From an uncultured Holophagales bacterium (GTDB taxonomy: Bacteria; Acidobacteriota; Thermoanaerobaculia; Multivoradales; UBA5704): a stretch of DNA of 64,000 nt. Where the stretch lies: assembly GCA_963842525.1 (NCBI GenBank), contig CAWJGT010000003.1, positions 1,120,001 through 1,184,000 of the forward strand, in the 5' to 3' direction. Positions 19,618-36,036 of the stretch are shown one piece after another. The notes under the pieces were generated by a model. It made no database searches, had not been told where the DNA came from, and saw nothing but the letters and a program-made list of their open reading frames with translations. Position numbers and translations under genes: made by a program. How positions within the stretch are numbered: position 1 is the stretch's first letter; the number at the start of each line of letters is the position of its first letter.

Positions 19618-20079
19618 ATGAAGCTGCTTCCAGGCGTGGTAGGGCGTATCCTCGTGGCCTCGTGCGTGAGCGGGCTTGTCCTCGGGCTCGCTGCGCGCGC
19701 GGTGATGCGATTTGTCGCGCTCGAATCGGGGCTGCCCAACGGCTTCTCGATCGGTGGGTCGCTGGAGGTGGTGGCTTTTGGTGCGATCCTCGGGGCCCCG
19801 ATCGCGTTTCTGTTCTTCGCCTTGCGTCGTCGCATCAAGATGGGGCGCCCGTGGCCCGGCGTGATCCTGGGGTCGCTCCTGTTCGGCATCGTGACGGGCG
19901 TGCCGCCGCCCGCGGCGAGATCCGCTCTGACGGCAACGCCGGATACTCCCGCGGCCACAGCGCTTGCCTTCGCGGTAGTGTTTGTTGCCTGGGGCTTGTG
20001 GCTGGAATACTTGGCAAGCCGCGTGCTCGGCGCCGCCGCGCCAGGTGGTCAAAGAGAAGGCACCCCCGTCATAGAGTAG
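19618..20079 (+). CDS. Hypothetical membrane protein (~4 TM)
   Basis: GGAGG RBS, ATG 19618, hydrophobic segments. Confidence 0.7.
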   Translation: MKLLPGVVGRILVASCVSGLVLGLAARAVMRFVALESGLPNGFSIGGSLEVVAFGAILGAPIAFLFFALRRRIKMGRPWPGVILGSLLFGIVTGVPPPAARSALTATPDTPAATALAFAVVFVAWGLWLEYLASRVLGAAAPGGQREGTPVIE

Positions 20080-20082
20080 AAG

Positions 20083-20487
20083 TCATGCCTGCATGATGTG
20101 CTGCGCAATGATTTCAAAGAGTGTCCGGGCATCCTTGTTTCCCCGCGTCAGCACGAAACTGATGATCTGCCCTCCCTGGAGCCGAAGGATGATTTTTTTG
20201 TTGACCATGCCGGAGATCGTGGCAGAATCGAGCGAATTCAGGCTGAAGATGCCCACCATCCCCATGCAGATGACGAGATAGTCTTCAGTGATGGCAATGC
20301 CCTTGGCCCCAGAGGATTTTTCGGCAAAGAACAGAAGCACGTCATGGGTGGCCAGGTTTATTTCGAGCTCTCTGTTGGCACATTTCAAGAATGTTGTGAT
20401 CTTGTTGGCGTCCATAAAGGGCTTTACGTAAAGGCATTGACCCTTGCGGATACTGTGCTGATCTATGATGTCCGCGATCAAGCTCAT
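20083..20487 (-). CDS. Hypothetical protein, low GC
   Basis: 134-aa ORF with GGAG RBS, AT-richer than flanks. Confidence 0.6.
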   Translation of the reverse strand: MSLIADIIDQHSIRKGQCLYVKPFMDANKITTFLKCANRELEINLATHDVLLFFAEKSSGAKGIAITEDYLVICMGMVGIFSLNSLDSATISGMVNKKIILRLQGGQIISFVLTRGNKDARTLFEIIAQHIMQA

Positions 20488-20541
20488 CTCCAGCCCTCCA
20501 GGACGTTGGAATTGTAGCAGCCCGCTGATAGACTGCGCGAT

Positions 20542-20880
20542 ATGCTCCGTTCCACCGTCCTGCTCGCGGTTGCCGCAGCGCTCGCCGGCTGGGGTCGCCT
20601 GGCCGCGCAGTCCCCATCCGCTGCCGGTCTCGAGGCTCCGGATCTCACTCTGCCCGCGCTACGGTTGCCCGCCGGCGTGCGCCCGACCCGGTGGCCGCCG
20701 GCGCGAACTGGGCGGCTTTCAGGACGCCAAGCTCGCCCGCGCCCTCGCGCTCCTCCTCGACCCGAAGATCGACCTCCGCGACTCGGGCGGCCTCTTGCGG
20801 ACGGCAATGGAACGCCGCGAGACCCGCGAGCAGGCCTGGGACTTCTACAAGCAGCACTTCGCCGAGCTGGCCGCCGATGC
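20542..20880 (+). pseudogene. Internally deleted M1 aminopeptidase relic
   Basis: Signal peptide plus LRLPAGVRPTR (M1 N-terminus) joined out of frame to LGGFQD..LARALALLL..REQAWDFYKQHF (ERAP1_C-like); catalytic core absent. Confidence 0.65.
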
Positions 20881-21017
20881 AAGCTGCGTCGCCTCGCCGC
20901 TGCTCCGCAGAGGCGATTTAAGCTTGCGCCGAGGGACCGCCCGCTGTGCTCGGAAGCCTGCAGGGAGGCCAGTGAAGAATAACGATGACTAAGGATGACT
21001 AAGGAGGAGATTTCACC

Positions 21018-21614
21018 ATGGCCGACAGCGATTTGACGATCTACAACCCACAACAGATCACGGTGGCGGCGGAGATTTACTTGCCCAGCCAGGGAGTCCA
21101 GGGCAAGACCCTCGACGCCGGGGCGACATGGGTGATCTCCGACGGCGTCACCTCAGGGCAGTGGGTCGCCTTCTACAACCCGGAAACCGGCGAGCAACTG
21201 GCTGCGGCCCTGCTGCCGGACAATTCCACGATCGCCCAGTTGCTCCTGGAGGTAGGAATCGAGGGCCTTCTGCGCATGAATGCCCAGGAGCCCCTCACGG
21301 CGGCGAACGGGCTCGGCTCGGAGGTGACCGTCCGTGTCCAGGACGTGGGGGCTGCGACGGCACAGATCAAGAAGCTCGCCCCCAAGGGCCAGCAGGGGAG
21401 CAGCGCGAATTTCCGCTTCGCCGAGAAGGGTCAATGGCTGGGGTTTTACAATGACGACGACACCTATATCACCGGCACCCCGGCAGGCAGCTTCTCGATG
21501 GTGACTCTCGTCGCCCCGAGGCAACGCTTCGTGATCGGCAATCCGTACTCGGTCGGTGCCGATGTCGTCCCGGAAGGGTCGGTCCGTCTTACGCTACCGC
21601 CGATCACCGCGTGA
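21018..21614 (+). CDS. Hypothetical protein with internal two-fold repeat
   Basis: AAGGAGGAG RBS; GQWVAFYN and GQWLGFYN in two similar beta-rich halves. Confidence 0.8.
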   Translation: MADSDLTIYNPQQITVAAEIYLPSQGVQGKTLDAGATWVISDGVTSGQWVAFYNPETGEQLAAALLPDNSTIAQLLLEVGIEGLLRMNAQEPLTAANGLGSEVTVRVQDVGAATAQIKKLAPKGQQGSSANFRFAEKGQWLGFYNDDDTYITGTPAGSFSMVTLVAPRQRFVIGNPYSVGADVVPEGSVRLTLPPITA

Positions 21615-21691
21615 GGCGAAGCGTACTGCGGCTGCCACGGCGCGCCACAGCGCGGCCCTGCGCACCTGTCCTGTAGCAACCTGTCTGTACA

Positions 21692-21901
21692 GCCCTCAGA
21701 CGTCTCCAAGCTGCCCCTGAAGGCCGCCTGCTTGCCCCCAGGGGCAATGTGCCGGCCCTCAGGGGCAAGGTGCTCGCCCCTGAGGGCGACGGGTCTGCCC
21801 TTGAGGTCCACGTGCTCGCTCCTGACGGCAAGGCGCTTGCCCCTGAGGGCCGCGCTCCGAGCCTTGAGGGCCATGCGGAGGCCCCTGGGGGCAAGGGACG
21901 G
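21692..21901. repeat. Tandem array of ten 21-bp units (12-bp quasi-palindromic core GCCCCTGAGGGC + 9 variable bp)
   Basis: Cores start at 21692, 21713, 21734, 21755, 21776, 21797, 21818, 21839, 21860, 21881. Confidence 0.85.
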
Positions 21902-21916
21902 CCGCCGGGGCGCCGC

Positions 21917-21971
21917 TCAGTGCCCATCACCCTCCGTCGTAATCCACGGCGCGATGAAGAAGAGGCGCGCC
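21917..21971 (-). repeat. Duplicate of the last 55 bp of the NCS2 permease gene
   Basis: 49/55 identical to 22965-23019; encodes LFFIAPWITTEGDGH* vs LFLIAPWITTEGEGH*. Confidence 0.85.
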
Positions 21972-22101
21972 GATCTCCCCCTCCTCGGAAGCATCATGCT
22001 ATGGTCTCCCCGCAGCTCGACAGCCATCCAGGAATCGTAGGCCACCGCGTGAGCTCATCTGGCGCAGGATTTCCAAAGACCCTCTGAAGGAAGAGATCTC
22101 A

Positions 22102-22947
22102 ATGCTCACGATGGCTGTGTGGTTCTCCGCCATGACTCTGGCCGGCCTCGCGCCGGCCGCGCCTCCGGACCTTCACCGGACCGATTTCCGCAACTTCACC
22201 TATCAGCCGTCCTGCGCCGACTTCGAGTCGGCTGAAGCCAAGGTCCCCGTTCGAGTGGAGGCCGGCCGGTTCTACGGCAAGGAGGGGACGCCGACCGAGG
22301 GCGTCTTTTTCGAGGTCCAGGAGATCCTTTACGGCGACCTGACCGGAGACGGTAAAGACGAGGCCGTGGTGAGAACGCTCTGCAACACGGGCGGCACGGG
22401 ACAGTTCAACGAAGGGTTCGTCTACGGGATGCGCGACGGCAAGCCGGCCTTGTTGGGGAGGGTCCCCGGGGGAGACCGGGCCTCGGGCGGCGTGCGCTGC
22501 CTCCGCGTCGAGAACGGAGCGTTGACGGTCGAGCGGTTGGGCAACGACACCGGCGCAGCCCAGGGCGTCGACTGGATCGACAGCGAGACCTGGCGGCTCC
22601 GCAACGGCCGCCTGGAGGAAGCGGGCAAGGCGGTCCGGCGGCGGCTGGGGACCGGAGAAGGCGCCAAGCCGATCCGCTTCGCCAAGGGGAAGACCTCTGC
22701 GGTGGTCAAGGGAAAGATCAGCGGGACCGACGAGTATGTCCTGGGCGCCCGCGAGGGGCAGACGATGACTCTCAAAATATCCTCCCCGGCTGGCAACGCC
22801 GCCTTCGAAATCATGATCGACGACTACACCGTGGCCTGCCGCGGAACCGAGTGGACCGGCGAGCTACCGGCAAGCGGTAACTACCGCGTCTTGGTCCTCG
22901 CCACCCGCGGGACGGTCGAGTATGCGCTGGAGGTGTCGATCCGATAG
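22102..22947 (+). CDS. Secreted protein with C-terminal PPC/PliG-like beta-sandwich domain
   Basis: Signal peptide; DFRNFTY, YGDLTGDGKDEAVV; PIRFAKGKTSAVVKG..YVLGAREGQTM..LPASGNYRVLV. Confidence 0.75.
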   Translation: MLTMAVWFSAMTLAGLAPAAPPDLHRTDFRNFTYQPSCADFESAEAKVPVRVEAGRFYGKEGTPTEGVFFEVQEILYGDLTGDGKDEAVVRTLCNTGGTGQFNEGFVYGMRDGKPALLGRVPGGDRASGGVRCLRVENGALTVERLGNDTGAAQGVDWIDSETWRLRNGRLEEAGKAVRRRLGTGEGAKPIRFAKGKTSAVVKGKISGTDEYVLGAREGQTMTLKISSPAGNAAFEIMIDDYTVACRGTEWTGELPASGNYRVLVLATRGTVEYALEVSIR

Positions 22948-22964
22948 TGCACCGATCATGACCC

Positions 22965-24524
22965 TCAGTGCCCCTCCCCCTCCGTCGTGATCCACGGCGC
23001 GATCAGGAAGAGGCCCGCCATCGCTGCATAGCCGGCCACCCAGGGCCAGGCCGGGGTGAGCGAGACCACGGTGTCGGCCGGCGTCCACTGATAGGAATGC
23101 ATCAGGCCGAGCGCGGAGAGCACGGCTGCCGCGGCGCACCATAAGGCCGCGATGCGGAAGCGGCGTTCGAGGATGCCGACGGTCGCCGCGGCGAGGATCA
23201 TCGCGCTGAAGATGAAGCCCTGCTCCAGCGCGAAGGCGCCGTGGATCCAGGTGTCGGAGGCGAGAAGGGCCTGGACGAGCCCCTCTGAAAAGGGCGGTCC
23301 ACCTGGGAGGCCCACTCCAGCGGCGCGCAGACCGTTTTTCGCCATCAATGCTCCCCAGGCGGCGACGCCCGGCAGCAGGCCCACGACGACGGCGGGCGCG
23401 TGCTCGCGCGGCGTGGCCTGAAAGGCCTGTGCGGTAATCACAATGCCGATCCACAGCACGATCGCCATGCCGGCGTCGATCGGTATCGCCCAGGCAATGA
23501 CGGCGAGCGTTCCGGTGAGGCCGACCACGGCGAAGAAGAGCGCATTGAGGACTGAATAGCCGGCGCGCGCGCCGAGCGCCTTCCAGCCCGGATGGCCGAT
23601 GTAGATCGTGGTGGGGAAGCAGGAGCCGAAGAGCGCGGCGGCGAGCGTGCCAATCCCGTTGACCGCCATCGAGGGCCGGGTCGGATAGCTGTCGCCAGCG
23701 GCCTCGGCCGACTCGATGTTCTGGAACGAGCCGACCACATTGAAGAGGCCCATCGGCAGGATGACGGAGATGTAGGTCAGCCAGTGCGTGCTGGTGAGCG
23801 CCGCGAGGAGATCGTCCAGCACCGGCACGGGCGGGTAGAAGCCGGCCCACGTCTCTGGTGCCGCTCCCACCGGGGCGACGCCGGTGAGCCAGGCGATCAA
23901 GGTGCCGAGCGCCACCGCCACCAGGCCTCCAGGGAGCCCGCCGCGAAAGCGTACCCGGCCGAAATAGGTGAGCAGGACCACAGCCAGCGTGGTGAGCCCG
24001 ATCACCGGCCGTGCGAAGGTGCGGAAGAGAAAGCCGATCGAGATGAAGGTGAGGGCGATGCCGGCGAGGGTCGACAGCAGTGCCGCCCGCGGCGTCGCAC
24101 GGCGTACCCGTTCAGCCACGAAGGCGCCGGCGAGCTCGATCAGCCCGGAGCCGACGCAGGCGACGAGCCCGGCCTGCCACGCTACCCGCACCGGGTCCTC
24201 CGCACCGGCCGCCTGCGCGGCCAGCTTCGCAGGCAGCATGACGAGGAACACGTAGGCGAAGAGCGAGACCGTGTTGATCCCATAGGGCAGCGCACAGACG
24301 TCCGTCCGTCCCGTGGCCCGCCCCAGACGGACCGCCTGCCACGAGTAGAACAGGTTGCCCACCACCAGAGACACGACCGCGCCGGGGAGGACCCGGCCGT
24401 AGATCAGCTCGTTGGGGAAGCCGAGCACCGTCCGGCACAAAACGTCGATGAGCAGAAGCTGGACGAGGTTGTCGAGAGCCAGCCCGAAGAACCCGTCGAT
24501 GTCGCCGCGGACCATCCAACGCAT
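22965..24524 (-). CDS. NCS2-like (xanthine/uracil-type) permease
   Basis: GDIDGFFGL, ALPYGIN, NIESAEAAGD, TTIYIGHPGWKALGARAGYS; many TM helices. Confidence 0.88.
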   Translation of the reverse strand: MRWMVRGDIDGFFGLALDNLVQLLLIDVLCRTVLGFPNELIYGRVLPGAVVSLVVGNLFYSWQAVRLGRATGRTDVCALPYGINTVSLFAYVFLVMLPAKLAAQAAGAEDPVRVAWQAGLVACVGSGLIELAGAFVAERVRRATPRAALLSTLAGIALTFISIGFLFRTFARPVIGLTTLAVVLLTYFGRVRFRGGLPGGLVAVALGTLIAWLTGVAPVGAAPETWAGFYPPVPVLDDLLAALTSTHWLTYISVILPMGLFNVVGSFQNIESAEAAGDSYPTRPSMAVNGIGTLAAALFGSCFPTTIYIGHPGWKALGARAGYSVLNALFFAVVGLTGTLAVIAWAIPIDAGMAIVLWIGIVITAQAFQATPREHAPAVVVGLLPGVAAWGALMAKNGLRAAGVGLPGGPPFSEGLVQALLASDTWIHGAFALEQGFIFSAMILAAATVGILERRFRIAALWCAAAAVLSALGLMHSYQWTPADTVVSLTPAWPWVAGYAAMAGLFLIAPWITTEGEGH

Positions 24525-24623
24525 AGGAAACCTCCTCCCGGATTGGCGACGGGAGCGTATCGTAGAAGGGAGATCGGGAGTAGGCGTCGAGTTGGGGCTC
24601 GGTCTGAGCGGCGCGCCTGGCCG

Positions 24624-26219
24624 TCAGGGCGCTACATCCGCTTCGGCCGTGGTGATCTTGCTGCTCAACGGATCGAACAATGCCACGATGAGGTGTTGCG
24701 CGATCCGCCGCAGCTTGAGCCGGGCGTCGTACCGGACGTGGCCGCCTCCCCGGGGCGGTGCGCTGTCGAACGTGAAATGGAGCGGAATCACCGGAATCTC
24801 GGAGCGGTCGCCGCGGTCGTCCAGCGCCGCGACCCGCAGCTCCAGGTCGGCGACATAGCGGCCGCCGCCCACCGGCAGCACCGTGATCGAAGTCAGCGGA
24901 ATGGTCAGGCTCACAGGGACCTCCATCTCCTTGCGCCCCGCGCGCTTCGTCGCGCCGACCTCCATGGGCATGGAGGCCGTGTTTCCGCCGCCGAAGAGCA
25001 GGGAATGCTCCAGCATCATGGAGATTTCGCTGCGCCGCGACAGGTCGAGGAAGCCTGCGCGCGACCGCACCGTCAGGCCCGGGCGCAGCACCTCCACCTT
25101 GATGCGATGGCGCAGGTCGTTCTCCCGCCATGAGGGGGTGAAGCCGAGCCAGTAGTACGACCGCGTGTCGGCATGGGCTGTCCCCAGCGCTGCCAGGCGC
25201 GACTCGTTGAGCAGCGGCCGCCCGCCGGTTCCGGCGGCGATGGAGGTCAGGGCGGAGTGGATCTCCTCCTCGCGGTGCTCAACCTGCCCGGTGGAGGTGA
25301 AGGCGTCGGCGCCTACCGCTTCCCACCCGGGCACGTCCACCGGATAGATCGTGTAACCCAGCCGGTTGGCGGTGTCAGTCAGCGGCCCATAGAGATCGTT
25401 GTTCCAGGGCAGACGAGAGTCGTAGACAGGACCCAAGACATTGCCGGCATAGGCAGCAGGGGAGTCCGGCCAGCCACCGGCCAGCAGTAGGAGGACCTTG
25501 CGGCCAGGCGCCTTGGCGAAGGCGCGCAGCGTGGACACCGCGGCCATCACAGCGCGCTCGATCCGGTCGGTCAACTGCCTCGCATAGGCGACCTGGTCCA
25601 GGTCCAGCCCCGGGCCGCCTTCCGAGGCAAGGCGGCGGGAGGACTCCATGCTGCCCAGCTCCGCTTTGCGGTCGATGCCGTAAGCCCGCTGGGCCATGGC
25701 CTTGTCGATGGCTCGCGCCAGCCCCTCGGCCGAACCCGTCCAGGGGCCAAAGCTCTCCAGCCGCCGTCCGTCGTAGGCGACGAGGGTCATCCGGTCCTCC
25801 GGTCCCAGCCGGGTGACATCGGCCTTGAGGGCGCGCAGCACCTCATCGCGGCGAGCGCGCAGCGAGAACAGGTTGTCGATGAACACCAGATAGCTGGTGC
25901 CTACCGGGCCTTCCCCGACGAGGCTTGGAACGCCTGCCGGCTCCGGAGCGTTGGCGGTGGACGCGACGGCCTGGCCTTCTCTCACCTCGGTGAAGTACTC
26001 GATCGGCACCTCCCTGTCCGCGACGAACAGGCGGAAGTCACCGCGCCCCAGCCCCGGCACCCTGCCGCCCTCCCTGTCGGTGACGACGACCTCGAGGTTG
26101 ACCACCCGTACGTCGATCACCTCGCCGAAGGTGCTCACCTGTTGTGGATCTCCGCTGGGAACCTGTTCGGCGAAAGCGGGGAGAGCTGCGGCAAGCAACA
26201 GAGCAGTCAAGGTCTTCAT
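24624..26219 (-). CDS. Secreted VWA-domain protein (Acidobacterial VWFA-related type)
   Basis: VRVVNLEVVVTDREG..VPGL..DF, GRKVLLLL, TIYPVD, TGGR, YYWLGF, VRSRAGF. Confidence 0.88.
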   Translation of the reverse strand: MKTLTALLLAAALPAFAEQVPSGDPQQVSTFGEVIDVRVVNLEVVVTDREGGRVPGLGRGDFRLFVADREVPIEYFTEVREGQAVASTANAPEPAGVPSLVGEGPVGTSYLVFIDNLFSLRARRDEVLRALKADVTRLGPEDRMTLVAYDGRRLESFGPWTGSAEGLARAIDKAMAQRAYGIDRKAELGSMESSRRLASEGGPGLDLDQVAYARQLTDRIERAVMAAVSTLRAFAKAPGRKVLLLLAGGWPDSPAAYAGNVLGPVYDSRLPWNNDLYGPLTDTANRLGYTIYPVDVPGWEAVGADAFTSTGQVEHREEEIHSALTSIAAGTGGRPLLNESRLAALGTAHADTRSYYWLGFTPSWRENDLRHRIKVEVLRPGLTVRSRAGFLDLSRRSEISMMLEHSLLFGGGNTASMPMEVGATKRAGRKEMEVPVSLTIPLTSITVLPVGGGRYVADLELRVAALDDRGDRSEIPVIPLHFTFDSAPPRGGGHVRYDARLKLRRIAQHLIVALFDPLSSKITTAEADVAP

Positions 26220-26419
26220 ATGGCTCCTCTCTTCAGGGAGACCGGCGCAGGTACCACCTTGGTAAGGCCCTCTACGAGAAAATGCGGAACAGCCCAGAAG
26301 CATTTCGCGCCACCGGAACGGTCGGGGCGATGGGCGGGGGCGAACCCACTGCCCGCTCGCCCGGCCCAGGGTTCATACCCTGCGCTACCGAATGGCGCCT
26401 TCCGGGGTGGTGGGGGGGC

Positions 26420-26531
26420 CCTGGGACCGCGGGCGTCCCGCCCGCACGGACTTTCAGCGACCGCGGCGTTGCCGCCAACTCAACGCAGGTCCGAGCGTGG
26501 GGAGGGCGGGCGGGACGCCCGCGGTCCCAGG
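26420..26531. repeat. REP-like inverted repeat element, family B (preceded by a family-C remnant at ~26365-26406)
   Basis: CCTGGGACCGCGGGCGTCCCGCCCGC ... GCGGGCGGGACGCCCGCGGTCCCAGG. Confidence 0.8.
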
Positions 26532-26568
26532 AAGAAACTGGTCGTCCAGAGATTTTCGAGACCCCCTC

Positions 26569-27135
26569 TTAGCCGGCTGGGTTGGTGTGACGACCTCGGC
26601 GGCTCTTTGCGCGTTTCAGCCGAACCGATTTCGGCAAGACAGATCGAGGCTCGCACGTCCCGCGGAGGATTCTCAGAATCTCCCCTGCGATGGCCGCGAG
26701 CTCCGCGTCAATGCCGTTTCCACGCCGGGCTCCAAGAGGCCTGCGGTCCCGTGGCCGCATGTTGAGGCGAGCGAGCCAAGGGACCTCTTCCCAGCAGCAA
26801 TCGCCCACGAGGATCGGAAAAACGCGCAACCCTTCGCTATCCCCGCGGTAGAGCAACCGGGGAACCTCTTCATGCCGGATGAATTCCGAGTTGAGAAAAT
26901 CGACAGAAATCAGCAGAACGGCGACGGCTGCCAAGTCAATGGCTCGACAGATCTCGGCAAACCAATCACTACCGGCGGAAATGTTACCATCAGCCCATAC
27001 CTCAAGAATCTCTTGTCCTTGAAGAACGCTGAGATGTTTTACCAATCGATTCTTCAGCTTCTCGTCGTGATGCGAGAAGCTGATAAAAACGATCCTCTTT
27101 CGTTGAGTCGTCTTGGGAGCACGACCGCTGGGCAT
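26569..27135 (-). CDS. Stand-alone TIR domain protein
   Basis: VFISFSHHD, VWADGNISAGSDW, VLLISVDFLNSEFIRHEE, VFPILV. Confidence 0.88.
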   Translation of the reverse strand: MPSGRAPKTTQRKRIVFISFSHHDEKLKNRLVKHLSVLQGQEILEVWADGNISAGSDWFAEICRAIDLAAVAVLLISVDFLNSEFIRHEEVPRLLYRGDSEGLRVFPILVGDCCWEEVPWLARLNMRPRDRRPLGARRGNGIDAELAAIAGEILRILRGTCEPRSVLPKSVRLKRAKSRRGRHTNPAG

Positions 27136-28290
27136 CGACTACCCCTTTCGCGGTTCCTCAACCCGTTGATCGACGGAATGGCAATGATGCGTCGAATCTC
27201 TTGGTACTTGAAGCCGTCGACTGGCCCCTTCTCTACGAAGATCCAACGATGGGAGTTGGGCACGACCATCAAGCGGTTCGCTTTGGGAAGGCCGTAGCGC
27301 AACCGCCTGCTGCCTCGTGGCGGCGGATTGATCTTGATGAGGAACCACCGTGTTCCCCCGCGACCTTGGACCCCTTGCAAGGAGGTAAAGCACGCTTTTC
27401 CGCCCATAGAGTCCCACAGGCATCGAAGGCCTTTGAACTTCTTCGAATGCCGTTAGGCCTGTTGGCTGCGGTTGCATAGAGCCTCCGGAATGCCATAGCA
27501 GTAAAGGTCTCCAGCGTTGCAAGTACCTTTGCTCCTCAAATCAATGGTGCCTGGACCCCAGGGAAAAGCGAGACTTGTGGAGGTCTCGGGGATGGGACGC
27601 GATGGCTCGATCTCGAAGCGGCCACTCCTCTTGAAGCGTCTTCCCGACATGGCTGCCTTCGAGGCTAGTCATCACCGCTCTTCTTGTCAAGCCTGGCCCC
27701 CGCCCCGGGAGAATCTCGCCTACACCTGCGCAGTACCTTACCGTCGTTCTTGGACACGCCGAGTGGGCTTTTGTTGGGGAGGGATGGTCATTGTGCTTCA
27801 ATTCGCTCGCGTTCCAAACACCCACGCCTCTTCCATGAGGAGGAAATAGGCCGTATCCCCAATAACTGCAATCCAAGGGTAACCCAGTTGATAGAAGTTG
27901 CCGTAAGCAACGAGGCCATCACCCGCGACCTCTCAGTCGTAGATGATCCGCATCTCCGCCGATCCGTAATCGCATCACGTCTATGGACTCCGTCGCAGTT
28001 GAGATTCCCGCCATTGGGAGTACCCCAGACCGCCCCAGCCGCCCCGCCAAGCCTCCTTTCCGAGAAAGGAGGCTCCGCGCCCTCTGCTTCCGGTGCAGAG
28101 CCAGCTGCATCCCCTCCGAGAACAGCGAGGCCCAGCACGGTGGTAAGCCAAACGACTCGCACACTCTTTCATCACCGTCACTCCCTCACGGCATACCTGC
28201 CAGAGGCCTGCCGTTCGGCGGGGCCCCAACGAAGGCTTCTTTTAAGGCGCCAGTGATGTCGCTGACGCTTGCTCATGCAGAGTTCACAGC

Positions 28291-29772
28291 TCAGCCGGCT
28301 GGCGCTGGATTGAGGGCGACCTGGAAACGGGCGAAGTGGAGCTTCGCGAGTTCGGGTGGGATCTCGGGCTTGGGTTGCTCCCAGTACATGGGACGGATGA
28401 AACCCTCGCGCCCCTGCGCAAGGGCGTGCAGCCACTCCTCTTTCACGTGGGGAGAGAGGCTGGCCCGTGACGACCAGCAGAGCTGGAAGAGGTCCGCCTC
28501 CTCGATCTTCCGCAACAGCGCCGGATTCCACTCCTCGCCTGAACGCAGCTCCCGAACATCCCGCAGGTATTTGAAACCCAGGACGGTGTAGGCCTGCTCC
28601 AATTGATCGACCAGCAGCGAGTCCTTGTGGGAGTAGGAGACGAAGACCGACTGGTAGAGGGAGGCGGTGGCCCACTGGTCCGGCACCTCTCCCGCGTCCC
28701 CTTCGGCCAGCACACGCATCTGGAGCGGGATCTCCGCGACCAGGATGGGACCGACGAAGCAGCGCACGCTCCCGAGGAGCGGCATGCCAGGGGTCTGATC
28801 GGTGACAGAGCGGAATCGGAAGTTGGCGCGATGCCAGTCCTCGAGCCAGAGCACGGAGGTGCGCGGCGGGTTGAAGCGGCAGCCGGTCAGCTCGGGGACG
28901 AAGGTAATCTCGGCCTCGCGGGCGATCAGGCTGAGGGATTCAGCGCTGCTCTTGCGGAAGCCTCCCTTCTTCGCCCCCAGCACAGCCCGGCTGTCTTTCT
29001 CGATCTCCGCCAACGCGCTCGGCAGATGGCAATAGGCAAGGAGGGTGTGCCAGGCTCCCGGGCGCACAACGCGCGGCGCATAGGCGGAGAACTGGACCTC
29101 TTCGAGCGCCGGCTCCGCCTCCGAAGCGAGATCCACCCCGCCGCGCGTCAGCTCCGGGACCTCCGGCTCGCTGGAGCCGCTGGCCGGTGCATCAGGGGAG
29201 AGCACGCCCTCGGCTCCGATGCCGAACGACCGCAGGCCCCGCGTGGTGTCGAGCTCCAGCCGGCGTCCTTCAGGGAGGATCGCGACGGGTTCGTGGAAGA
29301 TCGGTCCGTGGAAGATCGGGATGTGTAGGACTGAAGTCTGCGGCTTCTGACCGCGCTCCCGCAACTCGACCCTGATTCCAATCATGGCCGGGTTCCAGGT
29401 CTCTTCCACGGCGCGGACCCGGAGACGGTCGCGGAATTCGTGGATTACGCTGGAGGCGCTGCGTTCCCCGATCCGCAACACCTGACCGCTGCCACCCGTG
29501 GCATTGGCGAACCGGAATGCCGAGCTTTCGAGGGTATAGACGGTCGAGAAGCTGCTCGCCGCGTTTGTCCGCAGACGGAATGAGACCGTGATGTCGCCGC
29601 CGGTTAGCGAAATGCTCTTCGGGTGGCAGTCGACACTTTCGAGGATCAGCACTCTATTCTCCACTTCTACCGGCACCGAGTCTTCATGCGGGCCCGTCGC
29701 ACCTTCGGAACTCTTATCGTGAGCGTTGGGCCGTCTGTCAGCGGCCGCTTCGCCGAGTTGGCAACACGCCAT
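28291..29772 (-). CDS. Protein with C-terminal TIR domain and unassigned N-terminal/middle beta-rich domains (start uncertain)
   Basis: VFVSYSHKD, LRSGEEW, FQLCWS..SPHVKEEW, IRPMYWE; overlaps stop of upstream gene. Confidence 0.85.
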   Translation of the reverse strand: MACCQLGEAAADRRPNAHDKSSEGATGPHEDSVPVEVENRVLILESVDCHPKSISLTGGDITVSFRLRTNAASSFSTVYTLESSAFRFANATGGSGQVLRIGERSASSVIHEFRDRLRVRAVEETWNPAMIGIRVELRERGQKPQTSVLHIPIFHGPIFHEPVAILPEGRRLELDTTRGLRSFGIGAEGVLSPDAPASGSSEPEVPELTRGGVDLASEAEPALEEVQFSAYAPRVVRPGAWHTLLAYCHLPSALAEIEKDSRAVLGAKKGGFRKSSAESLSLIAREAEITFVPELTGCRFNPPRTSVLWLEDWHRANFRFRSVTDQTPGMPLLGSVRCFVGPILVAEIPLQMRVLAEGDAGEVPDQWATASLYQSVFVSYSHKDSLLVDQLEQAYTVLGFKYLRDVRELRSGEEWNPALLRKIEEADLFQLCWSSRASLSPHVKEEWLHALAQGREGFIRPMYWEQPKPEIPPELAKLHFARFQVALNPAPAG

Positions 29773-31753
29773 GCTCGCGGAGAGCCCGCAGAAGCTGCTT
29801 CAAGCTTTCTTCTCGATCTCCTGCGAAGAACTCCAGCCGGTGCACGCCAGCAAGCAGATAACGAAACTGAGCCTCTATCTTTGTATCGTCCAGGCATACA
29901 GGCAGTATCACCTTGTGGATGTCAGAGGCAATGTCGAGTTCCTTCGGGACTTGTTCCGATTCCATGGAGTTTTTCGATACTAAAAATACAACGACCCGAC
30001 AGTTGTCGATGGCGGAGACGATGGCTTCGCGCCACTGGACACCACCAGAGATCATGTCCTTGTCGCGCCACGCGCGGATGCCGTATGCCTCCAGGTCTGC
30101 CGTCAGTCGCTCGGCTTCCTTCTCGTCCTTCCGGGAATAGCTGATGACGACAGGGTAAGGTTCGGCCGTTGCCCCCCAGCGTTCCGCCGGCCGTCCTGTG
30201 AGGCCGGTGAGCAATTCCGTGGCATCCACGTGACGCGACGAGGGGTCCGATGCCAGCGCCCGGCGCAGGGCCGCCTGCAGAGGGCCAGGAGGGAATAAGC
30301 CCTCCGCGTCCGACGGGGTGGGCGGACCGATATTCCGCGCCGCACCGGCCGCGCACAGACAGCAAACGGTGGCAGCGATGGCGTAGACATCGGTAGCAGG
30401 CTCCAGGGTTCTCGCACCGGCCATATTCACCTCAGGTGCCACTACACGCGGATAGGCATAAACCGGGCAGCCGCGTCGAGCGATTAGCAGCAAGGCCTGT
30501 CCCCCGAGCAGCCAGCGGTTCCCAAGGCTGCGGAATACAGTGTAGGGCGAGACAAAACCGTGAACCCAACCAGCCCTGTGCAAGACGGACACGGCCTGTG
30601 CGAGGGCCAGCGCCAGCGCTTGGCCCTCGCCGGGGCTTAGGATGGGGCGTGCCTTCCTTCGCCTTTGCGCAACGCAGGTATCTTCGTCCAACGGGGAGGC
30701 AATGACGATGCGGCGTCCCCATTCCGGCTCCGCCTGAAACCATTTTTCCAGCGGCAGCAGATGTTCGTCCGTCACCTGGCGGCGCGCCTTGAACTCCTCT
30801 GTGGCCGATTTGATCAAGCCGAAATCTCCCGGCACTACTGTCAACAAATACCGGTCGCTCATCTCTTGCTCAGCCGCATCTAGGAGCCAGAAGCGTGGTT
30901 TGAGCAGGAGAGCGCGATTGACAACGAAGCCTTTGCGGATCTCGCCGCGAATTGCACCCTCCTTCTCACCGTCCCGAGCCGTCTGGCTCTTCGGGACGGG
31001 CACCCCCTCAGTGGCCCGCAGGACGCTGCGGATAAGTCCAGGACGGCATGCATCTCCCCACAACTCCGCGACAGCCTTCTGCGCTTCCAGGGGCGTTAGC
31101 CGGCCGGTGTGGGCAGCGGCGTTACGATGGATGTCGACGGCCTGCTGGAGGCGGTAGCACAGCCTACCGTCCCGCCACCAGCGGTTGGGCCGCAAGAGGT
31201 TGCTCTGCATCCAGCGTTTCAAATCCCCCAAGAGACCGGGCTCGTTTGCCCTGCATTCCTTCAGCTTTGAAAAAAGCAGGGCCGAGAACTTCAGACCGGG
31301 CAGTGGCTTGCCGTGCCGGACGAAGTAAGCCAAGCTGGTCAACTCCTGACTGGGCCAGCCGGCTTCCGGAGTCGCCATCCGCCTTGCAAGGGACATGGCA
31401 TCTCGGAAGGGGCGGAAGATCTTCCGCTCGACCTCGATCTCGACCGCCTTGAACAAGCACAGGATCACGGGCGAAAAGTCAATCTCAGGCGCTTCTGTCT
31501 GACCGAGTTGCTTGCCGGTGAGCTCCAGCACCTTGTCGCGCTCGGCGGCGACCTCTTCAAGCATCTCGTGGAAGACCTGCGACGTGACGAGGCAGGAACG
31601 AGTCCGCTTGTCGAGCCGGGTCCAAAGGTCGTGACCCAGGCGGCCCTGTAGAGCCGAGGCGGCCTTCGATAGGTAGACTAGGGCCGCGCTGCCGGCCCCG
31701 GCCGCGCGTACCGAACGGCTGTCTCCCGAAGTGTCTTGACCGGAAAACGCCAT
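29738..31753 (-). CDS. HEPN-like + protein-kinase-like (degenerate) + TIR fusion protein
   Basis: DFSPVILCLFKAVEIE and RNAAAH (Rx4H); LHRAGWVHG, APE, TDVYAIA; VVISYSRKD..AWRD..GGVQW..SEQVPKEL. Confidence 0.8.
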   Translation of the reverse strand: MAFSGQDTSGDSRSVRAAGAGSAALVYLSKAASALQGRLGHDLWTRLDKRTRSCLVTSQVFHEMLEEVAAERDKVLELTGKQLGQTEAPEIDFSPVILCLFKAVEIEVERKIFRPFRDAMSLARRMATPEAGWPSQELTSLAYFVRHGKPLPGLKFSALLFSKLKECRANEPGLLGDLKRWMQSNLLRPNRWWRDGRLCYRLQQAVDIHRNAAAHTGRLTPLEAQKAVAELWGDACRPGLIRSVLRATEGVPVPKSQTARDGEKEGAIRGEIRKGFVVNRALLLKPRFWLLDAAEQEMSDRYLLTVVPGDFGLIKSATEEFKARRQVTDEHLLPLEKWFQAEPEWGRRIVIASPLDEDTCVAQRRRKARPILSPGEGQALALALAQAVSVLHRAGWVHGFVSPYTVFRSLGNRWLLGGQALLLIARRGCPVYAYPRVVAPEVNMAGARTLEPATDVYAIAATVCCLCAAGAARNIGPPTPSDAEGLFPPGPLQAALRRALASDPSSRHVDATELLTGLTGRPAERWGATAEPYPVVISYSRKDEKEAERLTADLEAYGIRAWRDKDMISGGVQWREAIVSAIDNCRVVVFLVSKNSMESEQVPKELDIASDIHKVILPVCLDDTKIEAQFRYLLAGVHRLEFFAGDREESLKQLLRALREHGVLPTRRSGR

Positions 31754-32029
31754 TAGCGCTATTCTAGTTTGACGGGGGGCCGAGTGGCGGCGGTTTGCCC
31801 TTCCGCAGGCATGATTAGTAGAGGCCGACAACGCCCCCGAACTCAGGCCGGCGATTCATGAAGGGCTTTCCGGGAGAGGTTCGAACCCTCTTACCCTCAC
31901 TGTTTTAAGTCCGACTGCTTCCATCTCCTCGTCAGTCTCGAAGATACCGGCCGATTCTAGCTGAAACTGCGGTCGACCTCCAGGTTCCAGCACAGTCTGG
32001 GGGAGGGGTGCCAGGCGATTGTCTGTGGA

Positions 32030-32446
32030 GCCCACGTCTGCGGCGCCGCTCCCACCGGGGCGACGCCGGTGAGCCAGGCGAGCAGGGTGCCGAGCGCCAC
32101 CGCCACCAAGCCACCCGGGAGCCCGCCGCGAAAGCGCCCCCGGCCGAAATAGGTGAGCAGGACGTCCGTCCGTCCCGTCGCCCGTCCCAGGCGGACCGCC
32201 TGCCACGAGTAGAACAGGTTGCCCACCACCAGAGACACGACCGCGCCGGGGAGGACCCGGCCGTAGATCAGCTCGTTGGGGAAGCCGAGCACCGTCCGGC
32301 ACAAAACGTCGATGAGCAGAAGCTGGACGAGGTTGTCGAGAGCCAGCCCGAAGAACCCGTCGATGTCGCCGCGGACCATCCAACGCATGGAAGCCTCCTC
32401 CCGGATTGCTGGGAGGAGCGTATCGGAGAAGAGCCATCGGGAGTAG
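32030..32446 (-). pseudogene. Partial, internally deleted duplicate of the NCS2 permease 5' region
   Basis: Matches 23845-24583 except for an in-frame 321-bp deletion (23979-24299); includes RBS/upstream sequence. Confidence 0.9.
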
Positions 32447-32580
32447 TCGTGACCCCCTCGCAGCTCTTCCGGGCCCCGCGTTTGTCCTGCGGGACCGTCC
32501 CCGGCGGCAGTCCGGGGACGGTGGGACCCGTGGGTTTACGGGACGGGAGGGGTGGCCGTTGCGGGCAGCCGGCGCACGGA

Positions 32581-34740
32581 TCAGACCTGGAGTCCCTGCG
32601 GCACCGACTGCTGCTGAGAGGCTCCGACAAGCTGTCCGGTACCGCGCCCCACGATGTAGTTGTCGATGATCAGGGCATCGAGATCTGGTGTCTCCCGAAA
32701 GAAGTTGAGGATGTCGGCCGGGGTCTCGACGATGGGCATCCCTCTTCTGTTGAGCGAGGTGTTGAGGAGCGCCGAGATCCCAGTCAGCCGCTTGAAAGCC
32801 TGGAGCAGCGCGCAATACCTTTCGTTCCACTCCGGAGTCACCGTTTGCAGGCGTACGGACCCGTCGCAATGGACGATGCTCGTCAAGCGCTCCCGCCACT
32901 CCGGACGGACGTTGGCGACCAGAATCATATAAGGGCTTTCGCCGTCGAGGTCGAAATAGGTCTGCGCATCGGCCAGCAGGACCGAGGGAGCGAACGGCCG
33001 AAATTCCTCCCGGCGTTTGATTTTCGCGTTGATCTTGTCGCGGAACTCGGGATGCCGGGGGTCCGCCAGGATGCTGCGATGCCCCAGCGCCCGCGGGCCG
33101 AGCTCAGCTCCTCCTTGAAACCACGCCACAATCTTGCCGTCTGCAAGGAGTTGGGCGGTCGTCTCGACCACATTCTCGTCCTGCTCGAAGACGAGCGTTC
33201 TTTCGTTCGTCAGCCCCGCAGTCGTCAATCCCTTTTGGATCTCCTGGCGAACCCGGCTCCAGTCGACGCTGTTATAGAAGGTCAACAGTACGTCAGGGTT
33301 GGTGCACTCGATTAGACGACCTTCGAGGGCCTGGGCAGGGTGCAGGCTGCCGTAGAGAAGACCAGCCATGGCTTGCTGGTCTCCGGCAATGACGGCTCCG
33401 CCGTTGAGCGTTTGCCCTTGGAGCAGACGACACGAGGAGCCATCGACCGCACTCACAAAATCTCCAAGGCCCTCGACCTTCCAGGTCAAAGTACCTTCCC
33501 ACCCTCCCAGCCTTTGTCGATCCAGGCAATCGTGGATCAGATGGAACAGCAGCTCGATCCCACCCCGGACCGTCTGGGTACTTGTCGCGAGCGAGGCGCT
33601 GCGTGCCGACTCCAGAGAATCGCGGACCATTTTTTCCGGGTACCGGTAGCCGAGGAAGGGCGAGCCGGAATGCCGAACGAGCTCCCTCCTCAGCACCTCC
33701 AGCCAGCCGTAGTAGGCACAGCCGACGGAAATACCGTTGTCACCTGCCGCGGGGACCATGTACAGTTGTTTGAACCTGGATTTTTTCAAAATCAGGGCGT
33801 TGGCGACCGCGTTGAGCGCGACTCCACCGGCATAGGCGAGGCAGTCGCCCGGGCCCATTTCGTAGCGGCTTTCCACGAGATAAAGCAGGGCCCGTTCAAC
33901 CTCTCTCTGTACCCAGTGCGCAATATCGGCAAAGTATTGGAACCTCTGTTTGAAGTCCTCAGGGCTCATGGCAGGCTGCCGAAAGTTTTCCATCCAGTCG
34001 TAGCGGACGAAGACTCTCCCGGCTCGCAGCTCGAAGATCTCGCCGTCGAAGGCTCCTGGACGGCCGAAAGGCGCCAATCCCATGAGCTTGCCGAGGTCCA
34101 TGTTTTCACGGAAGCAATACAGGCTGACGGCGCCGTACACACCTCCGATGGAGTGCTTCGTCGTGATTGGCAGCATCGGATAGTCCTTGAGCGTCATGCC
34201 CCAAGGTGAGAAATCCTTGTAGACGACGCGCAGGCGGCCGTCGCGATACGTGTAATAGCTGTCTTTTTCGAAATAGAGATGGCAGACATCTTCGCCTACG
34301 TCCTCTACGGCTTTGAAGTCCGCCACGGAGAAATCGTCGCATTCATCCAAGCCGCTGCCACAGCCGTCAACCACCAGGATGTTGGGCTCGGCGAAAGGAC
34401 TGGTCCCCAAGGCGCTGTATGCGTGGGCAAGATGGTGAGAAATGGTCACGATGGGCAGATCCATGCCGTCTCTGAAGGGGCGTGGGCCGGAGAAAAATGA
34501 ATTCCCCCGTTCGAAGCGTCCGAAGTTGGCGTTCTGCACCACGAGCGTCAGGTCGTCGAGCGTGATCCCCGCTGCGTCGAGGCAGTACTGGATGGCGGCA
34601 GCATCATTGCCGCCGTCGTGCTTGACCCGGGTGACGCGCTCCTTCTCGATGGCCACCGCGATACGGCCATCCTTGAGAAGGCAGACCGAACCGTCGTGAG
34701 ATACTCCTGTTCCCAGAACATAGACCGGCTTCGTGGGCAT
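32581..34740 (-). CDS. NodU/CmcH-family O-carbamoyltransferase with inserted SCP2-like domain
   Basis: SHDGS, EKERVTRVKH, SHHLAHAYSA, GKLMGLAPFG, AGGVALN, GDNG; ELGPRALGHRSIL, KRREEFRPFAP, LNTSLN. Confidence 0.9.
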   Translation of the reverse strand: MPTKPVYVLGTGVSHDGSVCLLKDGRIAVAIEKERVTRVKHDGGNDAAAIQYCLDAAGITLDDLTLVVQNANFGRFERGNSFFSGPRPFRDGMDLPIVTISHHLAHAYSALGTSPFAEPNILVVDGCGSGLDECDDFSVADFKAVEDVGEDVCHLYFEKDSYYTYRDGRLRVVYKDFSPWGMTLKDYPMLPITTKHSIGGVYGAVSLYCFRENMDLGKLMGLAPFGRPGAFDGEIFELRAGRVFVRYDWMENFRQPAMSPEDFKQRFQYFADIAHWVQREVERALLYLVESRYEMGPGDCLAYAGGVALNAVANALILKKSRFKQLYMVPAAGDNGISVGCAYYGWLEVLRRELVRHSGSPFLGYRYPEKMVRDSLESARSASLATSTQTVRGGIELLFHLIHDCLDRQRLGGWEGTLTWKVEGLGDFVSAVDGSSCRLLQGQTLNGGAVIAGDQQAMAGLLYGSLHPAQALEGRLIECTNPDVLLTFYNSVDWSRVRQEIQKGLTTAGLTNERTLVFEQDENVVETTAQLLADGKIVAWFQGGAELGPRALGHRSILADPRHPEFRDKINAKIKRREEFRPFAPSVLLADAQTYFDLDGESPYMILVANVRPEWRERLTSIVHCDGSVRLQTVTPEWNERYCALLQAFKRLTGISALLNTSLNRRGMPIVETPADILNFFRETPDLDALIIDNYIVGRGTGQLVGASQQQSVPQGLQV

Positions 34741-34903
34741 TACGATCTCCCGTTGTCGCGAAACATGGACAAAAGCTGGCGAGCCGTCTCGCCAGAAGGT
34801 TTGCGGCAATGCGGAGTTTAGTATAAGACTGTGGGTGAGGACAGCCAGGGGGGGAGGGCAGGCGGTTGCGGGCGCTGTCGCCGCCGACTGCCCGCTGCCG
34901 CTC

Positions 34904-34932
34904 TTGACACCGCTTCGTCACCTCACTACGCT
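34904..34932 (+). promoter_or_regulatory. Sigma70-type promoter of the LacI/glucan operon
   Basis: TTGACA (34904-09), 17-bp spacer, TACGCT (34927-32). Confidence 0.7.
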
Positions 34933-34950
34933 CATGTAACCGGTTACATG
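34933..34950. promoter_or_regulatory. LacI-family operator
   Basis: Perfect 18-bp palindrome CATGTAACCGGTTACATG with central CG, between -10 box and lacI start. Confidence 0.85.
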
Positions 34951-34955
34951 GCGCC

Positions 34956-36036
34956 ATGACGAGCCAAAACAGACCGACAGACCCGACGACCGCGAACGCC
35001 ACCATCAAACAGGTGGCGCGGTTGGCTGGTGTCTCGGTGGCCACGGTGTCCCGCGTTCTCAACGACAAGGGGCCGGTCCGCGAGGAGACCCGGCTCCGCA
35101 TCCGGGAGGTGATGGAGAGCCTCCGCTACGTCCCGCACAGCGCGGCCCGCAGCCTCACGACCAACCAGACCGACACGCTGGGCATCCTCCTGCCGGACAT
35201 CTACGGCGAGTTCTTCTCCGAGCTGATCCGCGGCATCGACGCCGCGGCACGGCGGCGGGGGTATCACATCCTGGTCTCCGGGTCGCACAACGACCGCGAG
35301 GAGATCGCGGCCGTGCTGCGGGCTCTGCGCGGGCGCGTCGACGGGCTGATCCTCATGACCCCATCGCCAGGCACCCTGGAGGCCCTGCGCGCCAACCTGC
35401 CCGAGTCGTTGCCCACCGTGCTGCTCGACTGCCCGCCGCTCGACCTGCCGTTCGACTCCATCAACGTGGACAACCGCGGCGGCGCCTATGCCATGGCGCG
35501 GCATCTGATCGGCCTGGGGCACCGGCGCATCGCGTTCATCCAGGGGCCTCCCGGTAACCACGACGCCGGCGAGCGCCTGCGCGGCTACCGCGAGGCGGTC
35601 CGCGACCTCGGAGCGGAGGTGGCGCCGGAAGCTCGAGATCCCTGGCGATTTCGGCGAGGAGGCCGGCTCCCGGGCGGGGCAGCGGGCTCTCGCGCTCGAT
35701 CCCCGGCCGTCCGCCATCTTTGCGGCCAACGACGCCATGGCCATCGGCTGCCTCTATGCGCTGGGCCAGGCCGGCATCCAGGTCCCCGAGGAGGTGGCCC
35801 TCGCCGGCTTCGACGACATCCCGATCGCCCGCTTCATGAGCCCTCCGCTGACCTCGGTGGGCGTGTCGATCGCCGGGCTCGGTGCGCTCGCCCTGGAGCG
35901 CCTGCTCGAGACGATGCGGCTCCGCGGCGCCGGCGGGCCCCGCCACGAGACGCTGCCTCCCACCCTGGTGGTGCGGGGCTCGTGTGGCGCACATCTAGTG
36001 AAAACTGCTCTTCTGGAAGGAGGTTCGGAACCATGA
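34956..36036 (+). CDS. LacI-family transcriptional regulator; frameshift near 35630
   Basis: TIKQVARLAGVSVATVSRVLN; after the shift AIFAANDAMAIG, AGFDDI, PPLTSV; TGA overlaps next ATG. Confidence 0.92.

Follow-up and report, generated by a model that had tools for sequence, protein, structure and literature searches.

RNase L and Ire1 each combine a kinase-fold domain with a HEPN-type domain in one polypeptide, and their activity is expected to depend on dimerization of the HEPN part. The kinase domain of RNase L is a pseudokinase. The KEN domain, a member of the HEPN superfamily that is fused to Ser/Thr/Tyr kinases, is entered as eukaryotic only in the tabulation of HEPN families in PMC3710099. 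We describe here a bacterial protein in which the same kinds of domain are joined by a third. It is encoded by open reading frame 1 (ORF1), on the minus strand (29738..31753) of a 64,000-nucleotide stretch, hereafter the window, from an uncultured Holophagales bacterium, a soil-type acidobacterium with a 9.95-Mb genome in 34 contigs (the window is C3:1120001-1184000). The protein consists of an all-alpha, HEPN-like N-terminal domain, a kinase fold that has lost its catalytic residues, and a C-terminal TIR domain. Like RNase L and Ire1, it thus holds a kinase-fold and a HEPN-type domain in a single chain, and its activity, too, would be expected to depend on dimerization of the HEPN part. Unlike them, it carries the HEPN-like domain N-terminal rather than C-terminal to the kinase, has neither ankyrin repeats nor a lumenal sensor, and has an added TIR (or, in relatives, PNP) effector. 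The comparison with KEN is one of architecture, with no sequence relation shown, and given the position of the HEPN-like domain ahead of the pseudokinase, we regard ORF1 as an analogue of RNase L/Ire1 and not as a member of that group. Our favored reading, which we consider moderately probable, sees in ORF1 a conflict protein akin to RNase L that is complete in itself, has two effectors, and is turned on by oligomerization.

Other described systems resemble single parts of this protein. In structure, the N-terminal domain is closest to RnlA and LsoA (RNase LS, an E. coli antiphage toxin-antitoxin); there was no sequence-level match to either by Pfam, PADLOC, or PDB profile search, and ORF1 differs from these toxins in that it lacks TBP-like N-terminal domains and an antitoxin gene and has its HEPN-like domain fused to a pseudokinase and a TIR. 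AbTIR, ThsB of Thoeris, and the TIR-APAZ proteins of SPARTA have in common with ORF1, and with two further TIR genes of the locus, ORF2 and ORF3, a TIR_2-type domain with a conserved Glu. However, neither ThsA, nor Argonaute, nor another known partner was found nearby with Pfam or PADLOC, and the fusion partners are new. For CBASS and Pycsar, no cyclase model matched nearby, and the SAVED_TIR and TIR-effector models matched over the TIR only. The relatives of ORF2 and ORF3 recall the NTPase-centered systems of Kaur, Burroughs, Iyer, and Aravind (2020/2021), with their promiscuous TIR and PNPase modules and their EAD7, bacterial Death-like domain 3 (bDLD3), NACHT, and CHAT domains, but Pfam and PADLOC scans of the neighboring genes revealed no STAND, MoxR, or GTPase core gene. 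As had been supposed in a preliminary description of this locus, no named system was matched: PADLOC gave domain-level matches only, neither it nor Pfam matched the ORF1 architecture as a whole, and the NCBIfam matches were far under their cutoffs. In the literature searched, we found no description of a HEPN-pseudokinase-TIR architecture; the supplementary tables of Aravind-group papers, which lie outside that search, might list it. Each of the three parts, HEPN RNase, pseudokinase, and TIR NADase, is a familiar one in immunity; it is their combination that appears in no family library or literature searched.

The start of ORF1 is placed at ATG 31753, giving 671 amino acids; the database form of the protein, P0001, starts there, and the homologue alignment begins at the same Met (the longest ORF, of 697 amino acids, starts at TTG 31831). 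An AlphaFold2 (AF2) model of the whole protein (pLDDT 69) has an all-alpha N terminus, a kinase-like middle, and a Rossmann-like end. For the N-terminal domain (31004..31696, minus strand; P0001 residues ~20-250), a model built from a 24-sequence alignment, which leaves out P0064, P0065, P0068, and P0069, reached a pLDDT of 89.4 and a pTM of 0.85. Six positions are invariant in this alignment: D92, K102, E105, R210, N211, and H215. The first three make up a helix-1 motif, D92...K102..E105 (DFSPVILCLFKAVE), at 31439..31480, and the others belong to an Rx4H motif, R210-N-A-A-A-H215, at 31109..31126, both on the minus strand. The latter had been singled out as an RNAAAH region in the preliminary description; a codon count agrees with its position, and its R, N, and H are conserved in 24/24 sequences.

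In the HEPN active site as it has been described, an Rx4-6H motif lies where core helix 3 ends and the loop to helix 4 begins, a polar residue follows the Arg, and the core helix nearest the N terminus holds a conserved acidic residue (PMC3710099; Anantharaman 2013). All three are present here. In the AF2 model, Rx4H closes a helix (197-215) that is followed by a loop and then by a second helix (221-232); the polar residue N211 directly follows R210; and the acidic residue, E105, lies together with K102 in the first long core helix (94-119). This placement adds weight to the HEPN assignment beyond the structural match. In addition, the spacing of K102-x2-E105 and R210-x4-H215 mirrors that of R255/E258 and R318/H323 in RnlA, which likewise has a basic residue-x2-Glu in an early helix and a later R-x4-H (PMC8266594).

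Solved HEPN domains have in common an up-and-down core of four helices. The structural match itself came from VIA-align, a Foldseek-independent search of 48,161 chains. RnlA headed its results (Z 8.2, twice; root-mean-square deviation 3.9 A, with 137 residues aligned), followed by LsoA (7.8), two HEPN-MNT toxins (7.4 and 7.2), the sacsin HEPN domain (6.9), and AF_0298 (6.7), although values of Z below ~13 are, according to the tool, common for helical models. Also in the top rows were 1wwp, YutE, and an AMPylated HEPN toxin, with Csm6, AbiA, Las1, and Csx1 lower down. By entry title or literature, at least 10 of the 15 best rows were HEPN proteins. In both respects, the company it keeps in this search and the placement of its Rx4H motif as set out in PMC3710099, the domain behaves as the HEPN domain that the preliminary description had proposed. 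The only named families returned by the ESM Atlas were RnlA-toxin_DBD (0.86) and HEPN_RnaseLS (0.82); all scores there were below 0.9 and serve as leads only.

A homodimer of residues 15-262 was predicted with a score of 0.55, compared to 0.01 for the best control; among proteins of solved structure, 20 of 30 homodimers attain this mark, as does 1 of 23 monomers. Three runs had at least 74% of contacts in common, with a pLDDT of at least 79. The predicted interface is symmetric (residues 89-95, 98-99, 102, 105-106, 109-110, and 216-218) and is composed of the conserved helix-1 residues and of the residues straight after H215. In this, the predicted dimer is in agreement with the canonical HEPN dimer, which juxtaposes the two Rx4-6H motifs and on which the activity of RnlA depends (PMC8266594). 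A new HEPN-family domain is supported by conservation and modeling as far as computation allows, and it is probably a metal-independent RNase that would be active only as a dimer. No PADLOC model (E <= 1) and no PDB profile gave a sequence match over this domain. Since no curated HEPN family matched it either, the family, if it is HEPN, has not yet been filed.

The middle of ORF1 (30164..30931, minus strand; P0001 residues ~275-530) is a kinase fold. Foldseek found PknB/PknI with an E value of 1.6e-6 (probability 1.00), phmmer found PknI at 2.6e-5, and a profile match to PknG had an E value of 1.3e-10; among the PADLOC models, the kinase part of MkoA matched ORF1 at 3e-6. The isolated piece gave nothing useful against Pfam at E <= 10. 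In the alignment with PknI, the catalytic-loop HRD is replaced by HGF (30554..30562, minus strand), the catalytic-loop Asn by Thr, and DFG by RRG, and the APE and a DxY-type block are retained, much as the preliminary description had read this region, with the catalytic Asp and DFG missing and the later blocks kept. H398 and G399 are invariant (7/7), and HG[FH] is found in 10/10 of the kinase-bearing homologues in the 24-sequence alignment, HGF being the form in the window protein. Over residues 270-370, the 7-sequence alignment contains neither an invariant Lys nor a Gly-rich loop. With the HRD Asp, the Asn, and the DFG Asp lost and HG[FH] present throughout, this is therefore an old pseudokinase.

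The C-terminal TIR_2 domain (29789..30151, minus strand; genome match C3:1149789-1150151) aligns to the NAD+ hydrolase AbTIR with an E value of 0.0016. The Glu of its PKEL stands opposite the Glu of YEL in AbTIR, which we take to be the catalytic one. This residue, E605 of P0001 (29939-29941), is invariant in 7/7 homologues, as are the corresponding Glu residues of ORF2 (E446; 12/12) and ORF3 (E90; 16/16), and the claim of the preliminary description that all three TIRs keep their Glu is borne out. The ORF1 family profile also matched TIR-APAZ chains in the PDB profile search. From these sequence comparisons, we infer that the ORF1 TIR is an NADase.

ORF1 is very rare. The full-length family consists of seven proteins, including the query, in 5.8 billion clusters (the best 8000 candidates were scored), and the six homologues are 45-74% identical to it. 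No relative was found in 185,579 species genomes (34 pattern matches, then tblastn). Metagenome contigs gave at least 593 pattern matches, and among the matches listed were two short contigs with relatives, L001 and L002. L002 encodes the first 118 residues of a PNP-type relative. On L001 (278-2183), a full-length homologue of 39% identity is frameshifted, its two frames broken at about 1240-1284; its TIR is of a different subtype, and ~140 nt of downstream sequence follow. The first 551 residues of ORF1 had no counterpart in any of 40 related genomes, and ORF1 is an accessory gene.

The N-terminal domain reaches beyond this family: when 1.84 billion representatives were searched by phmmer with residues 1-270, 22 proteins matched at E <= 0.001. 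Nineteen of these were scanned with Pfam, the exceptions being P0003, known beforehand, and two fragments, P0065 and P0068. Two (P0062 and P0066) have a weak kinase match and a TIR_2 domain, and two (P0063 and P0067) have a weak kinase match and PNP_UDP_1 in place of the TIR. The PNP_UDP_1 domain of these last two matched the CBASS "PN-superfamily" effector (4.7e-20 for P0067) and PDC-M60C (7.5e-32) of PADLOC, and TIR and PNPase are named in PMC7159879 as alternative nucleotide-related effector domains. The swap of TIR for PNP marks the C terminus of ORF1-type proteins as a modular effector slot, with the HEPN-like domain and the pseudokinase as the constant core. Thirteen of the 19 proteins are 200-390 amino acids long and match no Pfam family, and the N-terminal domain is also found alone or behind a zinc-ribbon-like extension. 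P0064 is a probable chimera with a piece of the MraW methylase, and P0069 is a repetitive protein of 2371 amino acids without a Pfam family.

With a HEPN-only profile (A4, 14 sequences), 400 other genomes of the phylum were searched, and one of them, G149, contained a further match. This relative (L022 9565-10481, equivalent to G149:C1:4977564-4978480) has a zinc-ribbon-like extension and a HEPN-like domain in two overlapping frames; the split reflects a frameshift or a sequencing error. It follows, in the same orientation, Mrr_cat, AbiEii, and AbiEi_2 genes and has AAA_21/AAA_15, PIN, and IS21 IstB genes close by, a setting that is defense-island-like in this single example.

We imagine that ORF1 acts in abortive infection or regulated cell death. 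A trigger, perhaps a phage product or a nucleotide, would drive oligomerization by way of the pseudokinase, which would serve as a sensor and/or dimerization scaffold, as the kinase domains of RNase L and Ire1 do. Dimerization of the HEPN domain would bring two Rx4H motifs together for RNA cleavage; the NADase of the TIR would likewise need self-association, so that RNA cleavage and NAD+ breakdown would be switched on together in the oligomerized protein. ORF2 and ORF3 would act independently, as TIR effectors from other clades that share with ORF1 a variable, lower-GC stretch of a genome with an unusual wealth of TIR genes. If this is true, bacteria would have arrived on their own at the pseudokinase-HEPN logic that animal RNase L and Ire1 follow and would have linked it, within a single chain, to the destruction of NAD+. 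ORF1 would then offer a compact model for a dead kinase that gates two effectors, and its N-terminal domain would define a HEPN family that is new and has no more than some two dozen members known.

Several points weigh against this reading. The VIA-align Z values of 6-8 lie within the band common to helical models, so that the fold match alone is suggestive only. Foldseek searches of each domain, a check put forward in the preliminary description, worked for the kinase-like middle, as described above, but for the N-terminal model there was no match in the PDB at E <= 0.001. By sequence, no Pfam HEPN family matched the N-terminal domain at E <= 10, apart from one chance-level match. The family is tiny, so that the conservation of the six residues is drawn from 24 sequences, of which many are closely related. 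Neither a mobile element nor a known defense gene adjoins ORF1 in the window. Finally, ORF1 may require a partner gene, and in a lineage with 84 TIR_2 matches in one genome, TIR proteins may serve roles beyond phage defense.

Among the alternatives, the one that survives best, though we judge it unlikely, holds that the HEPN-like domain is a non-catalytic sensor of RNA or of another ligand and that the TIR (PNP in relatives) is the sole effector. Non-catalytic HEPN domains are known (PMC3710099), and a C-terminal slot that swaps between two known effector types is what one would expect if the rest of the protein were a sensor; the forms in which the domain stands by itself or follows the zinc-ribbon-like extension can be read in the same way. 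What speaks for catalysis is that the full catalytic-type set is invariant in 24/24 sequences, those stand-alone forms included, whereas inactive HEPN domains typically lose the motif, as stated in PMC3710099.

The neighboring TIR genes raise a different possibility, in which ORF1 is only one component. The preliminary description had reported three co-oriented, minus-strand TIR genes in a lower-GC block, and these are confirmed: ORF1 (29738-31831 as the longest ORF), ORF2 (28291-29772; 493 amino acids), and ORF3 (26569-27135; 188 amino acids) all exceed the 28-bit cutoff of Pfam TIR_2, with 82.1, 54.6, and 47.0 bits and E values of 6.1e-23, 1.9e-14, and 4.4e-12, respectively. GC content is 0.56-0.65 over 26.5-31.5 kb, whereas the left flank has 0.66-0.70. 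The coding status of ORF1 and ORF2 is backed by codon-position GC, with a weaker signal for ORF3. An overlap of the ORF1 stop with ORF2, also reported earlier, depends on the start chosen for ORF2; it exists for the longest ORF (ATG 29772; 35 nt) and disappears with the probable start, GTG 29640, which leaves a 97-nt spacer. The full-length ORF2 homologues P0009 and P0010 start at the position of this GTG, and GGAG lies 6 nt upstream of it.

TIR genes are abundant in this organism. The whole genome has 84 TIR_2 matches, many of them as tandem pairs; 13 pairs no more than 3.5 kb apart were observed and 2.5 expected, and 2 triples within 3.5 kb were observed and 0.03 expected, if 84 matches are placed at random in 9.95 Mb. 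The TIR genes of this genome therefore cluster as a rule, so the trio is non-random, yet clustering alone defines no system. We would caution more generally that a cluster of TIR genes in TIR-rich Acidobacteria is not automatically one system. Tandem examples are C9:1902639/1903381/1903867, C4:162232/162692, C20:96407/96827, C9:1471107/1472541, and C12:115868/117046, and one TIR_2 match lies 2.2 kb ahead of the window start (C3:1117549).

A multigene, Thoeris-like system, in which, upon infection, the TIRs of ORF2 and/or ORF3 would make an NAD-derived signal that binds ORF1, for instance in the degenerate nucleotide pocket of its pseudokinase, and activates its HEPN RNase, strikes us as improbable. 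It would suit three co-oriented genes that lie close together, with ORF1 and ORF2 97 nt apart or overlapping by 35 nt, and it would suit ORF3, which matches the ThsB1-type TIR model of PADLOC (2.2e-21). However, no ThsA effector goes with that match, and among the neighboring proteins scanned (5 with PADLOC and 7 with Pfam) there was no ThsA-type SIR2, Macro, or SLOG domain. The three TIRs are only 22-33% identical to each other and hence are not recent tandem duplicates, which counts in its favor, but the clustering of TIR matches is genome-wide, and ORF3 sits 1155 nt from ORF2. The nearest homologues of ORF1 and ORF2 are similar in identity (74% and 72%) and both come from the source class "ena," which would fit co-inheritance, and the N-terminal part of ORF2, present in three proteins in all, comes close to ORF1 in rarity. 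Set against this, the contigs of the six ORF1 homologues (3659, 4818, 19163, 21560, 4531, and 67463 nt) had no size match in the lists for the ORF2 family (53 other proteins) and the ORF3 family (43 other proteins), a comparison of the longest contig per match that is indirect and weak, the contigs being short and the best-sharing candidates being the ones scored. ORF1-type proteins, moreover, carry a TIR or PNP effector of their own, and the ORF2 module and the ORF3 TIR are fused to many domains (CSD, pentapeptide, FHA, CHAT, NACHT, EAD7, and bDLD3).

A functional ORF1-ORF2 pair is possible. The larger claim of the preliminary description, that the three genes form one system, was not supported: ORF1 is conserved as a single polypeptide that swaps its own effector, the ORF2 and ORF3 modules are promiscuous, and neither the contig sizes nor the distance between ORF2 and ORF3 spoke for a shared unit. 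What stands of that interpretation is a single protein with a HEPN-like domain, a dead kinase, and a TIR.

We give less credence still to the idea of ORF1 as the equivalent of RNase L in bacteria, equipped with a second effector of its own, in which a small nucleotide made by a TIR, that of ORF2, of ORF3, or of ORF1 itself, would bind the degenerate pseudokinase pocket and cause dimerization and thereby activate a HEPN RNase of a new family. If true, this TIR-to-pseudokinase-to-HEPN route would be without parallel among the Thoeris, CBASS, and type III CRISPR systems described so far. Least likely of all is a non-immune role, in which an expanded TIR repertoire would serve regulated cell death, kin discrimination, or NAD-linked signaling in a complex lifestyle: the 84 TIR_2 matches, the ORF2-module relatives on TPR-CHAT proteins beside CHAT-NACHT-TPR genes, and the fusion of ORF3-like TIRs to EAD7, bDLD3, and NACHT would fit, and EAD7, Death-like, and NACHT architectures have been linked to multicellular prokaryotes by Kaur et al. 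(PMC7159879 and PMC8195603), but the same two papers treat such systems as conflict or immunity systems, and an accessory gene, absent from 40/40 relatives, in lower-GC DNA fits horizontally moving defense genes better than core signaling.

ORF2 (28291..29640, minus strand, from the GTG start) has its TIR match at 28321-28647, preceded by a conserved, uncharacterized pre-TIR domain (28663..29109, minus strand; residues ~222-370) that travels with the TIR. Together, this ~150-residue domain and the TIR make up a C-terminal module. The ORF2 family has 54 proteins, with coverage above 90% only in the query, P0009 (72% identity), and P0010 (55%); the matches to the other 51 cover only the C-terminal 52-71%, at 38-72% identity. 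The partners of the module include cold-shock (CSD), pentapeptide, FHA, TPR, HEAT, STAS, kinase, and caspase domains, as well as ImpA_N, VipA, SLATT/DUF4231-YukD, and a second TIR. Pfam (E <= 10) gave no match for the pre-TIR domain and nothing useful for both N-terminal parts of ORF2, and the ESM Atlas returned only unnamed clusters for the pre-TIR domain, with scores of 0.82-0.84. In two other Acidobacteriota genomes, an ORF2-type module ends a TPR-CHAT protein beside CHAT-NACHT-TPR or adjoins TPR and CHAT ORFs. The locus L023 (2734-12801), from a Holophagales metagenome-assembled genome, encodes a TPR-CHAT protein of 1360 amino acids that ends in the ORF2-type domain and TIR, with a resolvase-HTH gene before it and two CHAT-NACHT(-TPR) genes after it.

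ORF3 (26569..27135, minus strand) is a small, stand-alone TIR protein of 188 amino acids. Its 43 homologues are mostly TIR proteins of ~150 amino acids, and some are fused to EAD7, bDLD3, or NACHT/AAA_16. The 1155-nt spacer between ORF2 and ORF3 (27136..28290) holds no convincing gene: there was no Pfam match (7 ORFs), no Rfam match, no blastx match to the collected proteins, and no copy elsewhere in the genome, and its codon-position GC signal was not clear. Its GC content is the lowest, about 0.56, and it may represent a gene in decay or a long leader sequence.

On the other side of ORF1, at 32581-34809, is a gene for a 742-amino-acid carbamoyltransferase (Carbam_trans_N/C), with a GC content of 0.59-0.62. 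Five same-genus genomes match its C-terminal domain only, at 45-52% identity, so that it, too, looks acquired. In a synteny comparison with same-genus genomes, a gene for a permease-like protein of 519 amino acids (22965-24524) was the only one in common with G002 and G003; with this single shared gene, an empty site is not definable. ARAGORN called a tRNA-Gly (anticodon ACC) at 22838-22910, inside an ORF of 281 amino acids (22102-22947); the call is probably a false positive, since no tRNA appeared at this place in an Rfam scan of 20000-36000 (E <= 1).

A partial duplicate of the permease-like gene, covering its 5' end and the sequence ahead of it, lies just upstream of ORF1. The duplicate, at 31957-32450, corresponds to 23845-23978 and 24297-24587 in pieces of 228 nt (99% identity), 62 nt (82%), and 134 nt (93%), with ~318 nt absent between pieces. 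The two copies bracket a VWA gene and the three TIR genes. An insertion of a mobile element bounded by a 290-nt direct repeat was considered and rejected, as the DNA between the repeats yielded neither an integrase nor a transposase.

The VWA gene belongs to the secreted-type acidobacterial family TIGR03436 (4e-41) and has a signal-peptide-like start, and its paralogues stand in tandem arrays in related genomes. On these three grounds, a vWA-MoxR system that would include this gene was rejected. A promoter and terminator scan gave counts no higher than the shuffled expectation. Between the ORF3 stop and the start of the VWA gene lies a perfect, GC-rich inverted repeat of 26 nt (26420-26445 and 26506-26531, with a 60-nt loop), which may act as a transcription terminator or represent a repeat element.

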